A stretch of DNA of 10,752 bases from a virus (taxonomy: Duplodnaviria > Heunggongvirae > Uroviricota > Caudoviricetes): IMG/VR virus record IMGVR_UViG_2695420889_000008; one strand, 5' to 3'. The translations under genes and the position numbers were made by a program. Below the pieces are notes generated by a model. The model saw only the letters and a list, made by a program, of their open reading frames with translations. It was not told the origin of the DNA and did no database searches. Positions 5,498 to 9,089 of the stretch are shown here, in pieces (position 1 is the first letter of the stretch; every line of letters starts with the position of its first letter).

Positions 5498-5718
5498 GCT
5501 GCACCTCCGAGATGCTTCATGTTTTTTCCGGAGCGAAAGGCTATGAGCGGCATACTGACGCGGTAATTACGACCCAGCGGTTCACAAATCACCTTCTGAC
5601 ATTCACGGTCAACCAGGCTAACACGTAGAACATGCCCTGCAGGCGTGGTGTACCACTGACCCGGGCGAGGACAACGGAAAGTTTGATTGGTAAACCGTTT
5701 GAAAATATTTCGGATCAT
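5494..5718 (-). CDS. Hypothetical small protein (74 aa)
   Basis: ORF bracketed by ATGA overlaps on both sides (5715-5718 and 5494-5497), which argues for translation; no recognisable motif. Confidence 0.45.
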   Translation of the reverse strand: MIRNIFKRFTNQTFRCPRPGQWYTTPAGHVLRVSLVDRECQKVICEPLGRNYRVSMPLIAFRSGKNMKHLGGAA

Positions 5719-6866
5719 TTGCGCCCCCTTACCTCTGAAGAGTTCAGCGACGAATGAATAAGACGGGCAAGAAATGCCGCATCGTTAATTCGGTCATACA
5801 GACTTACAGCCAGCGGTGATTCAGCTTTTTCCAGCATGGGATAAAGCTGCTGCAACCAGACCTGATGAATTGATGAAATGTAGGAATAGAGAACGCTGGC
5901 GTTATGTGCAACGTCACTCGGTACAGCGAGCTTTGAAAGCTGTTTCTCCATCTGGTTAAAGGCATTGATGTATGCCTCTTTGAACTGGGCAGCACGTTTA
6001 CCCGTGAAACCCATAGCAAGAAACGCAAAGCCGTCGCGGGTTATTTGATAGCAAGGTAGTTTGCGGCCTGTGCAATCGGTGTAATCACTCACCGAAAAAT
6101 TGCGGGCAGTGAATGATGCGGAGCATTCAAGCGTGCGGATCTTTTTCAGAACATCGTCATGACGTTTGGAGAAGAAGTTGGCAACAGCCAGGGATGAAGT
6201 AACAGCCTGACCATCAACGATGGCAATTTCGGGTTGAGTGAGGGTTGGGATCGTAGCCATGATGGCAGCCTCTTTGGTGATTTTTAATAACTCACCACCA
6301 AGGCTTTCCACGACCTTATTGGTGGTGAGACGTACAGGGGTGGAAATACCGGTCACCAAAGAACCCGGCCCAACCGAAGTTGGCCCTGCACGCCCCACCA
6401 TAATTTGGGCGTAATGCTGCTCATGACACAAAAAAACCGCAAGAGCGCGGTTGTGCGCTTTGGTGAATTCCGGGTTTCCACGCCCGGCACCCGCTTTATA
6501 AGGTGCCTGAACAGTGTAACGTCCCGGAATGGCAGAATCAATGTGCTGGTGGTCCTTCACACTCAACAAAATCACGCCTGAATTTCCACAAAGGACTAAA
6601 GCACTCATGCGGGTAGTCTTTGCGAAGATAGATAACGCGCTGTGTTTCTGGCTCCCAACGAATAACATGGACATAAAGCCCTCTTCCGTCACGAAACCAG
6701 CGGTTAAGTTCCTGCACAACTCGCCCCCCACAGTCAGGTAAAGTTCTCTGTGGTTACTTACAGCCAGGTGATTTGGTAATCTGCATTCATGCCGTAACAA
6801 CAGGTGTTCAGCGACACTGACCACCAGCTGTTGCGACAAACGGTTATTTGCCGTTAAACTGTTCAT
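5715..6866 (-). CDS. Rha-family phage regulatory protein, C-terminal 181 aa, with ~200-aa in-frame N-terminal extension of unknown function
   Basis: Rha signature VTSSLAVANFFSKRHDDVLKKIRTL...ITRDGFAFLAMGFTGKRAAQFKEAYINAFNQME lies in the C-terminal half. The open frame runs 383 codons from an ATG (6864-6866) that overlaps the CII-like stop (ATGA). A second start at 6258-6260 has an AGAGG Shine-Dalgarno and would give a stand-alone Rha protein (5715-6260). Which start is used is unresolved. Confidence 0.55.
   Translation of the reverse strand: MNSLTANNRLSQQLVVSVAEHLLLRHECRLPNHLAVSNHRELYLTVGGELCRNLTAGFVTEEGFMSMLFVGSQKHSALSIFAKTTRMSALVLCGNSGVILLSVKDHQHIDSAIPGRYTVQAPYKAGAGRGNPEFTKAHNRALAVFLCHEQHYAQIMVGRAGPTSVGPGSLVTGISTPVRLTTNKVVESLGGELLKITKEAAIMATIPTLTQPEIAIVDGQAVTSSLAVANFFSKRHDDVLKKIRTLECSASFTARNFSVSDYTDCTGRKLPCYQITRDGFAFLAMGFTGKRAAQFKEAYINAFNQMEKQLSKLAVPSDVAHNASVLYSYISSIHQVWLQQLYPMLEKAESPLAVSLYDRINDAAFLARLIHSSLNSSEVRGRK
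6430..6452 (-). terminator. Intragenic terminator-like hairpin inside the N-terminal extension of the Rha ORF
   Basis: Minus strand: ACCGC-gctctt-GCGGT followed by T6-7. Short stem, so weak. Confidence 0.3.
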
Positions 6867-7426
6867 GCGTTAGTTTCTCCACAGACACAAAACGCCACGA
6901 CGCCCGGAGCTGCACACTCGCGGGCGTCACTCTTTTCTGGAGCGCAAAAGATTTTGTAGACCAGTGCTGCATGCTCCTGGAGCTTCGAAATTGACAGATA
7001 CAACTCATCATTAATTGCTGTCTGCTCGTGTGGCTCCACGACCCCATCTTCGATTGCCGAACGAATCTGCTTTGAGTAATTCCCGATCTGTTCGATGACT
7101 TCCAGCAGGCGCTGGTTTATATCGGCGTTCTCTACTTCCTCAATTTCAGGAAGCGATACGAACACCCCACCAGCAGACTGTGCGACAGCATCCGCAATGT
7201 AGTGAGTGCCAGCCGCGCGCTGTAAAACCATTGCCCATCCCAGCGGGAAAATCTGATCGCCATCGGCACGAAGGCGGTTAAATAATGCGTTCTCTGTTAC
7301 ATCCAGCCAGTCAGCTGCTTCAGCGTAACCACCCGGCAACGCTGCGATAGTTTTTCTGACAGCTTTCACGTACCACTCAGGCTGTTTTTCTACTTTCCAG
7401 TGATACTTACCCACGGTTAGCCTCAT
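6863..7426 (-). CDS. CII-like early regulatory protein (tentative)
   Basis: 187-aa ORF immediately downstream of the Cro-like gene, stop overlapping the next start. Family guess is from position and recollection only; weak Shine-Dalgarno. Confidence 0.4.
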   Translation of the reverse strand: MRLTVGKYHWKVEKQPEWYVKAVRKTIAALPGGYAEAADWLDVTENALFNRLRADGDQIFPLGWAMVLQRAAGTHYIADAVAQSAGGVFVSLPEIEEVENADINQRLLEVIEQIGNYSKQIRSAIEDGVVEPHEQTAINDELYLSISKLQEHAALVYKIFCAPEKSDARECAAPGVVAFCVCGETNA

Positions 7427-7457: not shown

Positions 7458-7658
7458 TTAATCTTTCGGATAGATATCCGGTCTTAAGTCAGATTTCGTA
7501 ATTGCACCTGACGTGCATTGCTCAAGTTTTTTAGCCAGCACAAAACTGGCTTTTTTATAACCATTGAAAACCAGCCGTAAGTAGCCTGGTGTTGAGCCAA
7601 CTTTTCCGGCCAACTCGCCCTGCTGTTCTTTGGTTAAAGAGTCCCAATACGCTTTCAT
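7458..7658 (-). CDS. Cro-like HTH repressor
   Basis: 66-aa ORF starting MKAYWDSLTKEQQGELAGKVG, with GGAGG Shine-Dalgarno 10 nt upstream. Divergent from the CI-like gene across an operator-rich spacer. The ORF-track start at 7682 has no Shine-Dalgarno and was rejected. Confidence 0.6.
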   Translation of the reverse strand: MKAYWDSLTKEQQGELAGKVGSTPGYLRLVFNGYKKASFVLAKKLEQCTSGAITKSDLRPDIYPKD

Positions 7659-7664
7659 ACAATA

Positions 7665-7731
7665 TGTACCTCCAATATACATATTACATGATTAATATGA
7701 ACCTTCAAGATACTTGTACCTTATCGGTACA
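7665..7731. promoter_or_regulatory. OR-like operator region between the divergent Cro-like and CI-like genes
   Basis: Two 17-bp sites: TGTACC-tccaa-TATACA (7665-7681) and TGTACC-ttatc-GGTACA (7715-7731). Candidate leaderless PRM: TTGTAC (7714-7719), 17-bp spacer, TTTAAT (7737-7742), start near the cI ATG at 7749. Candidate PR on the minus strand: TTGAAG (7703-7708) and TAATAT (7681-7686). Confidence 0.5.
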
Positions 7732-7748
7732 AAGGTTTTAATTTCTTT

Positions 7749-8423
7749 ATGAAAACAGTCCATGACATCCGGCGGTCTAACGCCAGAAAACTGAGAGATG
7801 GTGTTGGCGGGAATTCTTCCTTTGCCACCATGATTGATCGCGAGCCAACCCAGACCAGCAGGTTTATGGGAGATGGTGCTACTAAAAATATCGGTGACAG
7901 CATGGCACGGCACATCGAAAAATGTTTCGACCTGCCTGTCGGATGGCTTGATCAAGAACACCAGACCACGAACATCACAAAAAAACCTGATGTTTCAATC
8001 ACTAACAAACAAATAACGTTAGTCCCTGTCATATCATGGGTACAGGCCGGAGCATGGAAAGAAGTTGGCTATTCTGAGGTTGATTTGAGCACAGCAGAAA
8101 CTTATCCCTGCCCTGTACCCTGTGGCGAAATGACTTATATCTTGCGGGTGATTGGTGATTCAATGATTGATGAGTACCGCCCGGGAGACATGATTTTTGT
8201 TGATCCCGAAGTCCCTGCCTGCCACGGTGACGACGTTATTGCATTGATGCACGATACAGGCGAAACCACCTTCAAGCGATTGATAGAAGATGGAACACAG
8301 CGTTATCTCAAAGCATTAAACCCAAACTGGCCTGAGCCTTACATTAAGATTAACGGTAATTGCTCTATAATTGGTACAGTAATTTTCTCAGGAAAACCAA
8401 GAAGATACAAAATAAAGGCCTAA
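7749..8423 (+). CDS. CI/DicA-type prophage repressor with LexA-like S24 autopeptidase domain
   Basis: 224-aa ORF. C-terminal domain has the S24 motifs GDSM (catalytic Ser), GDMIFVD and TFKRL (catalytic Lys). N-terminal domain ends in the VGWLD motif typical of C2/CI-type DNA-binding domains. Confidence 0.85.
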   Translation: MKTVHDIRRSNARKLRDGVGGNSSFATMIDREPTQTSRFMGDGATKNIGDSMARHIEKCFDLPVGWLDQEHQTTNITKKPDVSITNKQITLVPVISWVQAGAWKEVGYSEVDLSTAETYPCPVPCGEMTYILRVIGDSMIDEYRPGDMIFVDPEVPACHGDDVIALMHDTGETTFKRLIEDGTQRYLKALNPNWPEPYIKINGNCSIIGTVIFSGKPRRYKIKA

Positions 8424-8434
8424 TCAATATTTAT

Positions 8435-8457
8435 AACCTGCTTCGGCAGGTTTTTTT
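8435..8457 (+). terminator. Rho-independent terminator after the repressor gene
   Basis: AACCTGC-ttcg-GCAGGTT hairpin followed by T7, 12 nt after the cI stop. Confidence 0.75.
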
Positions 8458-8461
8458 ATAC

Positions 8462-8494
8462 TTGACAATGTACCCACAAGATACATAATGTATC
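8462..8494 (+). promoter_or_regulatory. PL/PdicB-like repressor-controlled promoter with embedded operator
   Basis: -35 TTGACA (8462-8467), 16-bp spacer, -10 CATAAT (8484-8489). Operator-like TGTACC-cacaa-GATACA (8469-8485) fills the spacer; the 15-bp perfect palindrome GATACATAATGTATC (8480-8494) overlaps the -10. Confidence 0.6.
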
Positions 8495-8892
8495 TAAAAG
8501 AAACATGCCGCAGGCAAGATTAAACAAAATTTGGTTGTAACACGGCGTATGGCACATGCGTCGTTAGCGGTCTGGGGACGTTAAAGGGGACAATCCACTC
8601 CTTGCTCGGGCAAAAAAACCAGGTAGCCGGAATGTGCAAGTCAATGATGATGCTGATAAGACGCCTAACCAGCGCGGCGATCCGGTTTGACGCCTGGGAA
8701 GAGACCAGGGTGCAACGATGAGGGCATTTATGGAACCGCGACAAAGTGTGGTGCCGTAACTGGCTAAGTGCTCTCAGCGTTGTGGTAATCCGCGAAATGG
8801 CGCGGCGGTAAGTATGGCGGGGTTACTCTTTCCCCGTTGAGGACACCGGATTGTCAGGTTGACCATACGCCTGAGTGACAACCCCACCACAA

Positions 8893-8952
8893 CAGCCACT
8901 GCTTTGGCGGTACCAGTTTGTACACTTGCTTCCGGCTGGTACCGCTCTTTTT
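8893..8952 (+). ncRNA. dicF: DicF-like small RNA with intrinsic terminator (tentative)
   Basis: TTTGGCGGTACCAGTTTGTAC matches the remembered E. coli Qin DicF core GTTTGGCGGTATCAGTTTTAC at 19 of 22 positions. It sits in an 11-bp-stem hairpin (GGCGGTACCAG 8906-8916 / CTGGTACCGCT 8936-8946) followed by TCTTTTT. Context matches dicA - promoter - leader - dicF. Compared from memory, not by search. Confidence 0.45.
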
Positions 8953-9041
8953 ACAAAACAGAGAAGAGCATCACCGGACGACGGGCTCATAACCCAATCC
9001 AGCCGGGCGGCTGCCACCGCAGGTGTTCTTCTCTGTTTTGT
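8953..9041 (+). other. Large RNA hairpin (17-bp stem) in the leader just upstream of the first left-operon gene
   Basis: ACAAAACAGAGAAGAGC (8953-8969) pairs with GTTCTTCTCTGTTTTGT (9025-9041) with one G-U wobble. The 55-nt loop holds two small hairpins (CAGCC-gggc-GGCTG, CACC-gca-GGTG). Candidate RNase III or regulatory element. Confidence 0.45.
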
Positions 9042-9089
9042 GGAGAAACCAACCGACCTTGCAGGGTCGATATGATGAGGAGCAGCAAA

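Follow-up and report, generated by a model that had tools for sequence, protein, structure and literature searches.

Five probable operators of an e14/SfV-type lambdoid switch on both sides of a phage repressor gene

The repressor gene of the phage DNA analysed here (the window, which is the whole stretch of 10,752 nucleotides of IMG/VR record IMGVR_UViG_2695420889_000008) is flanked on both sides by 17-bp palindromes, which, judging from the sequence, are very probably the binding sites through which the repressor shuts off both early promoters. The module belongs to the e14/SfV immunity type, represented by ymfK and ymfT in Escherichia coli K-12. We hold with considerable confidence that five such sites are the operators of this lambdoid module, that they have the consensus TGTACC-N5-GRTACA and that they serve the repressor/Cro mechanism proposed below. 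The operator set is real and forms an ordinary lambda-like switch, from which no new principle emerges. The features of the region are as follows.

7458-7658, minus strand: cro-type gene (YmfT/CroE-like, 66 aa), from its open reading frame and translation, with weak Pfam matches to YdaS_toxin and HTH_3
7665-7681, no strand: O_R1, TGTACC-tccaa-TATACA, spanning about -7 to +10 of P_R and containing the cro Shine-Dalgarno sequence (GGAGG, minus strand)
7681-7708, minus strand: candidate P_R, -35 TTGAAG (7708-7703), 16-bp spacer, -10 TAATAT (7686-7681), predicted start near 7674
7698-7714, no strand: O_R2, TGAACC-ttcaa-GATACT, a match with three mismatches directly next to O_R3, with its centre at -43 of P_RM and an overlap with the P_R -35
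7714-7749, plus strand: P_RM, -35 TTGTAC (7714-7719), 17-bp spacer, -10 TTTAAT (7737-7742), start at 7749, the A of the cI ATG
7715-7731, no strand: O_R3, TGTACC-ttatc-GGTACA, a perfect palindrome at -34 to -18 of P_RM
7749-8423, plus strand: repressor gene of cI/YmfK/CohE type (224 aa; Pfam Peptidase_S24)
8435-8459, plus strand: intrinsic terminator after the repressor gene, from a terminator scan and annotated in SfV and Ayreon
8462-8489, plus strand: P_L, TTGACA, 16-bp spacer, CATAAT (11/12 match), predicted start near 8496
8469-8485, no strand: O_L1, TGTACC-cacaa-GATACA, at -27 to -11 of P_L, filling the P_L spacer
8489-8505, no strand: O_L2, TGTATC-taaaa-GAAACA, a weak site at -7 to +10 of P_L

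The cro-type and repressor genes diverge and are separated by 90 bp, with three operators over P_R and P_RM and a cluster of two at P_L, which is the arrangement of a lambdoid switch. The cro-type gene is annotated as cro in SfV and as ymfT in E. coli RefSeq genomes, and the GenBank record of SfV labels the segment equivalent to 7664-7732 of the window as 'putative operator region'.

A preliminary description of this DNA had listed four of the sites, 7665-7681, 7715-7731, 8469-8485 and, as a possible weaker one, 8489-8505, and direct reading of the sequence places all four exactly there. Its 17-bp consensus fits 7715-7731 and 8469-8485, but not 7665-7681, of which the right half is TATACA. The weaker site is present and is better supported than had been assumed, and 8469-8485 does lie inside the left promoter, filling the 16-bp spacer between TTGACA (8462-8467) and CATAAT (8484-8489). 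O_R2 is an additional site. In a pattern search, exact matches to TGTACC-N5-GRTACA were found only at 7715-7731 and 8469-8485, with a chance expectation of 0.00. With up to two mismatches to the perfect palindrome, exactly three matches were obtained in the 10.7-kb window (7665-7681, 7715-7731 and 8469-8485) against 0.24 expected, a number reached in 1 of 200 shuffles. With up to three mismatches, the whole window gave nine matches against 3.09 expected, a number reached in none of 200 shuffles, and five of the nine, including 8489-8505 and 7698-7714, fall within the two short control regions. Likewise, the non-coding matches with up to two mismatches in the complete 44.7-kb genome of phage Ayreon, which shares the immunity region, are O_R1, O_R3 and O_L1 only. 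A three-mismatch match inside cI, at 8114-8130, was taken as a chance occurrence in conserved coding sequence. Another palindrome, CATATTA-N6-TAATATG (7680-7699), between O_R1 and O_R2, was set aside because no other stretch varies as much among close relatives as its right arm (AATA, GAGA, AAGA or GAAA). Rfam gave no match in 7600-8900, and a literature search for the half-site strings returned noise only, the regulator of PMC9769523 being unrelated.

The pattern of variation was examined in 85 near-identical relatives, in which the repressor is essentially identical. Over the five operators, only 5 of 60 half-site positions vary, in comparison with 17 of 25 positions in the central spacers (Fisher p = 5e-8). 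Four-fold synonymous sites of cI vary more than the half-sites (35 of 97; p = 7e-5), and the operator spacers are polymorphic even more often than synonymous sites (17/25 vs 45/126, p = 0.004). Three of the five half-site changes go towards the consensus, and the other two are singletons in O_R2. Outside its spacer, O_R1 shows only the change TATACA>TGTACA, which is towards the consensus; variation of O_R3 is restricted to spacer positions; and in O_L1 all five spacer positions are polymorphic and none of the half-site positions. O_L2 reads TGTATC-tatag-GATACA in some close relatives and TGTACC-N5-GAAACA in e14, SfV and most genera, and both of these differences from the window go towards the consensus. 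The homology of SfV to the window stops exactly at 8505, the last position of this site.

A deeper comparison covered 29 genomes from about 22 genera of Gammaproteobacteria, with repressor N-terminal domains 48-99% identical, and three Pseudomonas and Vibrio phages. Throughout this set, the O_R sites are found at about -84, -51 and -34 relative to the repressor ATG, and O_R1 is kept 50 bp upstream of O_R3 in 25 of the 29 diverse loci. Across genera, the half-sites of O_R3 carry 1.9 bits against 0.3 bits for its spacer, and those of O_L1 1.89 against 0.48 bits. For O_R2, the half-sites show 1.6-1.9 bits compared with 1.2 bits in the neighbouring gap (21 enterobacterial sequences), and in Pseudomonas and Halomonadaceae loci the site reads TGTACC-gtcaa-GGTTCT, 16-17 bp from O_R3. 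O_R2 also overlaps the -35 elements of both P_R and P_RM, from which part of its conservation could come. The distance between O_L1 and O_L2 is always 20 bp, after the terminator, in 21 of 21 Enterobacterales loci, and the whole cassette of terminator, TTGACA, O_L1, TAA and O_L2 is conserved across this order. Beside the repressor gene of the distant Pseudomonas, Vibrio and Halomonadaceae loci, O_L was found only in Pseudomonas sp. L111, so that the O_L layout is shown for Enterobacterales only. Half-sites constrained among the close relatives while their spacers are free, O_R offsets fixed in the 29 genomes and three phages, and an O_L pair in all Enterobacterales loci bear out the earlier claim of a common operator on both sides of the repressor gene.

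P_L is annotated as a promoter at the equivalent position in Ayreon, and its hexamers TTGACA and CATAAT are invariant across enterobacterial loci; the terminator before it keeps its position across Enterobacterales. The leader from 8496 to 8700 gave no structured-RNA signal (z = -0.58). The candidate P_R, TTGAAG/TAATAT, matches the consensus at 8 of 12 positions only and is absent from the output of the promoter scan. Relatives have TAATAT, CATAAT or TATAAT at the position of its -10, and the conserved CAA inside the O_R2 spacer provides the TTG of its -35. The promoter proposed by the scan instead (TTCATA, 16 bp, TATATT, 7701-7674) loses the final T of its -10 in most relatives (TATATC, TATACC or TACATC) and would start downstream of the cro ribosome-binding site. 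TTGAAG/16 bp/TAATAT is therefore preferred for P_R, because the conservation fits it better. The -10 of P_RM, TTTAAT, has no canonical A at position 2. Nearly all relatives have a hexamer of the form xxxAAT 6-7 nt before the repressor ATG and lack a Shine-Dalgarno sequence there. The leaderless start at the cI ATG that had been suggested for P_RM agrees with the mapped start of the K-12 orthologue ymfK, of which the upstream sequence is nearly identical to the window: dRNA-seq in K-12 gave the e14 ymfK mRNA a leader of 0 nt, starting on the A of the ATG (Romero et al. 2014, PMC4681348, Table S3).

The repressor matches Pfam Peptidase_S24 at 1.5e-26, and a sequence search of solved structures aligned its C-terminal part with chains of lambda cI, UmuD and LexA. 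The residues VQA100-G101, GDS138M and FK176R are seen in its translation. The N-terminal domain gave no match to Pfam HTH_3, and its profile matches the N-terminal domain of the Rep protein of phage SPC32H (5d50) at 1.6e-8. In the recognition helix, TQxSR, all 19 aligned homologues have T34, Q35, S37 and R38. The half-sites and this helix are both invariant across genera, which is a correlation rather than covariation.

On the basis of these data, a mechanism can be proposed in which a dimer of the YmfK/CohE type would read the two 6-bp half-sites via its helix TQTSR, the five central base pairs not being read base-specifically, and in which the Cro-type protein (YmfT/CroE) probably binds the same sites. 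At P_L, repressor on O_L1 (-27 to -11) and O_L2 (-7 to +10) is predicted to exclude RNA polymerase. At P_R, O_R1 would cover -7 to +10 together with the cro ribosome-binding site, and O_R2 the -35. At P_RM, which would give a leaderless repressor mRNA from the ATG, O_R2 is centred at -43, the activating position of lambda cI, and occupancy of O_R3 in the promoter core (-34 to -18) by repressor or Cro should stop repressor synthesis. The order of filling and the activation step are uncertain because O_R3, the site closest to the consensus, should repress P_RM, which is the reverse of the lambda order of affinities. Following DNA damage, RecA-stimulated self-cleavage at Ala100-Gly101 may free both early operons together. 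Expression in K-12 is in line with such a link to the SOS response. The left genes of e14 (ymfJ, ymfH, xisE and intE) and its right genes (ymfT, ymfL, ymfM and others) form one co-expressed set with sulA and recN, and YmfK is listed in the literature as the SOS-sensitive e14 repressor. Repressor control of the left operon, as the preliminary description had it, is supported by the position of O_L1 and O_L2 on P_L, by the conserved cassette and by this co-expression of left and right e14 genes. The literature searched, to which the SfV (2002) and e14 (2004) genome papers did not belong, contained no binding experiment with the repressor or Cro.

The same co-expressed set is attributed in the literature to YmfT, as the 'YmfT iModulon', and it might be thought that YmfT alone acts on the palindromes, or more generally that only one of the two proteins, Cro-type or repressor, binds them. 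The position of the most symmetric site over P_RM, which in lambda is the preferred place of Cro, and the DNA-binding domains of the two proteins, which are unrelated by Pfam, would be consistent with this idea. We nevertheless consider it improbable. The sites stand at fixed offsets from the repressor gene, the repressor helix is invariant wherever the half-site is kept, and O_L adjoins the repressor-gene terminator, far from cro. Moreover, the iModulon includes sulA and recN, which the loss of an SOS-cleavable repressor explains better than activation by YmfT. To our knowledge, repressor and Cro share their operators in all lambdoid switches characterised so far, which also counts against a single binding protein.

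Two further explanations dispense with both phage proteins, and each appears extremely improbable. The palindromes could act as RNA or DNA hairpins rather than as protein sites, for example as a terminator at 7714-7732, where the terminator scan flags a 7-bp stem with a 5-nt loop followed by AGGTTTTAAT. This T-tract is absent in most relatives, which have, for example, GGTACACAATGTC, and in view of the missing conserved U-tract O_R3 was rejected as an intrinsic terminator. In addition, the stems are invariant and hence show no compensatory change, copies of the motif in both orientations occupy a promoter spacer and two start sites, and O_L2 and O_R2, which cannot form a hairpin, are conserved in position all the same. 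Alternatively, the sites could belong to a host regulator such as LexA, given that the module is SOS-responsive in K-12, or could result from chance together with shared ancestry, since close relatives share sequence by descent. A search for the LexA box CTGT-N8-ACAG found no match in either control region (7659-7748 and 8424-8510), even with one mismatch allowed, and chance is excluded by the shuffles. Descent does not account for half-sites that stay fixed next to spacers varying at the synonymous rate or faster, nor for a motif common to Escherichia, Pseudomonas and Vibrio elements whose flanks cannot be aligned. Collectively, operators used by the repressor, probably together with the Cro-type protein, remain the preferred reading.

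A bolder interpretation of the same operators, which we offer tentatively and regard as rather unlikely, is that the switch is wired unlike that of lambda and has been kept so from Escherichia to Pseudomonas and Vibrio. The P_RM core would contain the most symmetric operator, which touches O_R2 on a roughly opposite face of the helix, and each lytic promoter would carry an operator at exactly -7 to +10. The spacers may be under diversifying selection that tunes affinity and the induction threshold among otherwise identical prophages, and the 'YmfT iModulon' would be re-assigned to YmfK acting at O_R and O_L. If this were true, the wiring would imply either tight negative autoregulation or a Cro that first shuts off repressor synthesis.

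The immunity type is a common one, occurring in e14 of K-12, in the Shigella serotype-converting phages SfV and SfIV and in cdt- and Stx2c-converting phages; of 5426 complete E. coli genomes, 1323 carry the e14/SfV-type module. The consensus of the operators, together with the map of the promoters, could provide a handle on the induction of such prophages, and the operator map would explain why left and right genes of e14 switch on with SOS genes in K-12 transcriptomes. The repressor and its operators, with their natural spacer variants, also make a candidate orthogonal pair, of which no characterisation was found in the literature searched.

Over its first 88 residues, cI is 100% identical to that of SfV, the DNA being 96.4% identical, and nearly all of 1326 matching E. 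coli records, in which the genes are annotated as ymfK and ymfT, show DNA identity above 95%. Across cro, O_R, cI, terminator, P_L and O_L, the window shares 96-100% DNA identity with e14, SfV, cdtI, Ayreon, 2H10, SfIV and Stx2c-converting phages. K-12 e14 has all five sites: O_R1 TGTACC-tccgg-TGTACA, O_R2 TGAACC-ttcaa-GATACT, O_R3 TGTACC-ttaac-GGTACA, O_L1 TGTACC-tttga-GATACA and O_L2 TGTACC-caaga-GAAACA. The alleles of the window differ from this group mainly in the operator spacers, with weaker matches in its O_R1 (TATACA) and O_L2 (TGTATC), and downstream of 8505 it is of the Stx2c/cdtI/Ayreon type and not of the SfV/e14 type. The Rep protein of SPC32H, which is inactivated by an antirepressor and not by self-cleavage, matches the window repressor, in the search of solved structures, only over the N-terminal 76 residues. 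With lambda, the module has in common the divergent cI and cro, the 17-bp partly symmetric operators, the leaderless cI mRNA, three O_R sites over P_R and P_RM, another cluster at P_L, beyond the 3' end of cI, a repressor of the S24 self-cleaving type with a matching C-terminal domain, and an operator centred near -42/-43 of P_RM. In contrast to lambda, the half-sites have an unrelated sequence, the nearest match of the N-terminal domain is SPC32H Rep, and the site closest to the consensus is the P_RM-proximal O_R3. The geometry differs as well. Lambda has O_R2 and O_R3 centres 23-24 bp apart, three sites in O_L, and O_R and O_L separated by 2.3-2.4 kb. Rather than three sites per cluster at 6-7 bp from each other, the window has O_R2 and O_R3 abutting (0 or -1 bp between them, centres 16-17 bp apart), a 16-bp gap between O_R1 and O_R2 (centres 33 bp apart), two O_L sites 3 bp apart, and about 750 bp between O_R and O_L.

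Five 17-bp sites flank the repressor gene, three (O_R1, O_R2, and O_R3) between cro and cI and two (O_L1 and O_L2) 3′ of cI. Their reading as protein-binding operators of the immunity module, blocking the cro promoter P_R and the left-operon promoter P_L, is well supported. The operator proposed in the preliminary description, TGTACC-N5-GRTACA on both sides of the repressor gene, is real and was correctly interpreted, protein binding being predicted from the sequence.

Control region: probable operators, with promoters and genes (window positions)
7458-7658, minus strand: Cro-type gene (YmfT/CroE type), 66 aa
7665-7681: O_R1, TGTACC-tccaa-TATACA
7708-7681, minus strand: favoured P_R candidate, TTGAAG 7708-7703, 16-bp spacer, TAATAT 7686-7681
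7698-7714: O_R2, TGAACC-ttcaa-GATACT
7714-7742, plus strand: candidate repressor promoter P_RM, TTGTAC 7714-7719, 17-bp spacer, TTTAAT 7737-7742, start at the A of the ATG
7715-7731: O_R3, TGTACC-ttatc-GGTACA, perfect palindrome
7749-8423, plus strand: repressor gene (cI/YmfK/CohE type), 224 aa, C-terminal S24 peptidase domain
8435-8452 plus T-run: terminator 3′ of the repressor gene
8462-8489: P_L, TTGACA 8462-8467, 16-bp spacer, CATAAT 8484-8489, 11/12 promoter match
8469-8485: O_L1, TGTACC-cacaa-GATACA
8489-8505: O_L2, TGTATC-taaaa-GAAACA

Direct reading of the sequence places the four sites originally described at the same coordinates, and the corrections are small. The consensus, claimed for all three strong sites, holds at O_R3 and O_L1, but the right half of O_R1 misses GRTACA by one base, so the exact pattern gives only two sites in the window (expected 0.00). 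O_R2, a match at the three-mismatch level that directly abuts O_R3, had been missed, and O_L2, formerly a possible weaker fourth site, is firmer than was held. With up to two mismatches to the perfect palindrome, three matches are found against 0.24 expected; with up to three, nine are found against 3.09, a number reached by 0/200 shuffles, and five of the nine fall within two short control regions. Chance is contradicted as an explanation. Phage Ayreon (complete, 44.7 kb), a carrier of the same immunity module, has only O_R1, O_R3, and O_L1 as non-coding matches with up to two mismatches.

O_L1 occupies the P_L spacer (-27 to -11), and O_L2 begins at the final T of the -10 element and extends through +10; the Ayreon record annotates a promoter at the position equivalent to P_L. 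The favoured P_R places O_R1 at -7 to +10, as O_L2 at P_L, and O_R2 over the -35 element, while P_RM as read places O_R3 at -34 to -18 and centres O_R2 at -43. Because the centres of O_R1 and O_R2 are 33 bp apart (~3 helical turns) and those of O_L1 and O_L2 20 bp (~2 turns), each pair lies on one helix face, which, judged from sequence, would allow cooperative pairing via a lambda-like C-terminal domain. The O_R2 and O_R3 centres are 16-17 bp apart (~1.6 turns) and thus on different faces. The C-terminal domain of the repressor matches lambda cI C-terminal domain structures, and the protein carries a VQA-G cleavage motif, GDSM, and FKR. Pfam HTH_3 does not recognize its N-terminal 72 residues; a profile of this part matches the N-terminal domain of Rep from phage SPC32H (5d50, 1.6e-8).

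The half-sites are selectively preserved among close relatives. In 85 loci with an essentially identical repressor, 5 of 60 half-site positions vary, compared to 17 of 25 central spacer positions (7671-7675, 7704-7708, 7721-7725, 8475-8479, and 8495-8499; p = 5e-8), 15 of 87 other non-coding positions, and 35 of 97 four-fold synonymous sites of cI. Pure descent, which would account for likeness among such near relatives, is contradicted by half-site variability below the cI synonymous rate (p = 7e-5). Spacer variability exceeds that rate (p = 0.006 for cI; p = 0.004 with cro sites pooled in), phylogeny being ignored in these values; possible causes of the excess are a relaxation of constraint together with recombination, or selection that adjusts operator affinity. 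Of the five changes in half-sites, three approach the consensus (O_R1 TATACA>TGTACA; O_L2 TGTATC>TGTACC, as in the e14/SfV allele; and O_L2 GAAACA>GATACA), and the remaining two are O_R2 singletons. SfV-group homology runs exactly to the final base of O_L2 (8505), so the immunity module's mosaic boundary takes in this weak site.

The pattern also extends to distant relatives found with the repressor N-terminal domain, comprising Pseudomonas and Vibrio phages (55-58% identity) and 29 chromosomal loci of ~22 genera (48-99%), including Escherichia, Atlantibacter, Pantoea, Klebsiella, Serratia, Proteus, Edwardsiella, Salinicola, Pseudomonas, Vibrio, and Amphritea. Most share the O_R layout, with O_R1 ~84 bp before the repressor ATG and over the cro ribosome-binding site, O_R2 near -51, O_R3 near -34, and O_R2-O_R3 centres 16 or 17 bp apart. 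From 113 distinct pooled sites, the proposed consensus was recovered as T-G-T-A-C-C-N5-G-R-T-A-C-A. Reading the sites as LexA boxes is contradicted, as is a hairpin or terminator reading. Information content is 1.81 bits in O_R3 half-sites versus 0.33 in the spacer, and 1.89 versus 0.48 in O_L1; the spacers of O_R1 (TCC) and O_R2 (CAA) are partly conserved because of the cro Shine-Dalgarno sequence and the TTG of the P_R -35 element, respectively. The recognition helix residues T34, Q35, S37, and R38 are invariant in 19/19 aligned homologues, which fits the unchanged half-site as a correlation rather than covariation. The terminator/TTGACA-A/O_L1/TAA/O_L2 cassette is intact in 21/21 Enterobacterales loci; among the more distant loci, an O_L adjacent to the repressor gene was seen in one Pseudomonas locus only. 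In Pseudomonas phage vB_Pae_CF60a, the expected O_L place 3′ of the repressor gene (L003 2320-2385) has no TGTACC-type sites and holds two CTGTATATACA(G/A) copies ~50 bp apart; another protein may control the left operon in these distant relatives.

Several neighbouring features were also observed. Position 8505 is exactly where the sequence changes type, between an SfV/e14 group and a Stx2c/cdtI/Ayreon group, and many genera have a different conserved leader 3′ of O_L2 (ACAGGCAGGACGCCCACGA). The ~560 bp 3′ of P_L (8506-9071) contain only short or overlapping ORFs, with no convincing gene, N-type antiterminator, Rfam match, or unusual folding (z = -0.58). The gene after cro (6863-7426, minus), in the position of ymfL in K-12 e14, matches Pfam Phage_CP76 (phage 186-type CII regulator, 1.2e-14); SfV-type phages lack cII according to the SfIV paper, so a CII-type gene may have been overlooked. 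Rfam matches above gathering score identify C4 antisense RNA (6318-6405, minus, 83.6 bits) and, on the same strand, isrK (6430-6506, 67 bits), ended by an intrinsic terminator (6452-6435), with a weak a1/b1 target match at 6467-6519. Both lie inside a 383-aa ORF (5715-6866, minus), in which a Pfam Ash match (residues 117-213) coincides exactly with this stretch and is followed by a Rha domain. The stretch resembles an antirepressor module under RNA control, of P1/P7 or Gifsy type, and RNA genes may have been miscalled here as this long ORF or at least as its Ash portion. Just upstream on that strand, the sole zero-mismatch CTGT-N8-ACAG core of the window (6748-6763, CTGTGGTTACTTACAG) could be a LexA box that controls an antirepressor, as is the case in Gifsy-type phages; a scan there gave no promoter-like site.

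Over this region, the DNA shares 96-100% identity with the immunity regions of SfV, SfIV, cdtI, Ayreon, 2H10, and Stx2c-converting phages, and the module occurs in 1323/5426 complete E. coli genomes, with RefSeq gene names ymfK and ymfT; the cryptic prophage e14 of K-12 has all five sites. The finding is already known in part: the 2002 GenBank entry for SfV labels the equivalent of 7664-7732, from the O_R1 start to the O_R3 end, a 'putative operator region', and mapping of the leaderless promoter dates from 2014. The suggestion of a leaderless P_RM starting at the cI ATG is borne out for the K-12 orthologue ymfK, one of only five leaderless mRNAs in K-12, which starts at its first base with leader 0 (Romero et al. 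2014, PMC4681348, Table S3); across genera, an xxxAAT hexamer lies 6-7 nt 5′ of the repressor ATG, and no Shine-Dalgarno sequence is present. A published listing gives YmfK as the SOS-sensitive repressor of e14 (PMC8249747), and the 'YmfT iModulon' of e14 left genes (ymfJ, ymfH, xisE, and intE), right genes, sulA, and recN (PMC10602906, PMC12132413) is what one SOS-cleaved repressor at O_R and O_L would produce. In the accessible literature, outside which the SfV and 2004 e14 papers fall, no binding experiment for repressor or Cro was found, and the five-site consensus layout is without experimental definition.

By analogy with lambda, Cro would act on the same sites as the repressor, and binding by Cro only or by repressor only is unlikely; O_R2 at -43 would activate P_RM, and O_R3 in the P_RM core would mediate autorepression. 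Unexpectedly, and in reverse of the lambda order, the most symmetric site is the one nearest P_RM. Either the repressor tightly limits its own synthesis, or affinity for this protein does not follow simple symmetry, or O_R3 mainly serves Cro. Collectively, the five sites constitute a standard lambdoid operator set of the widespread e14/SfV immunity type.
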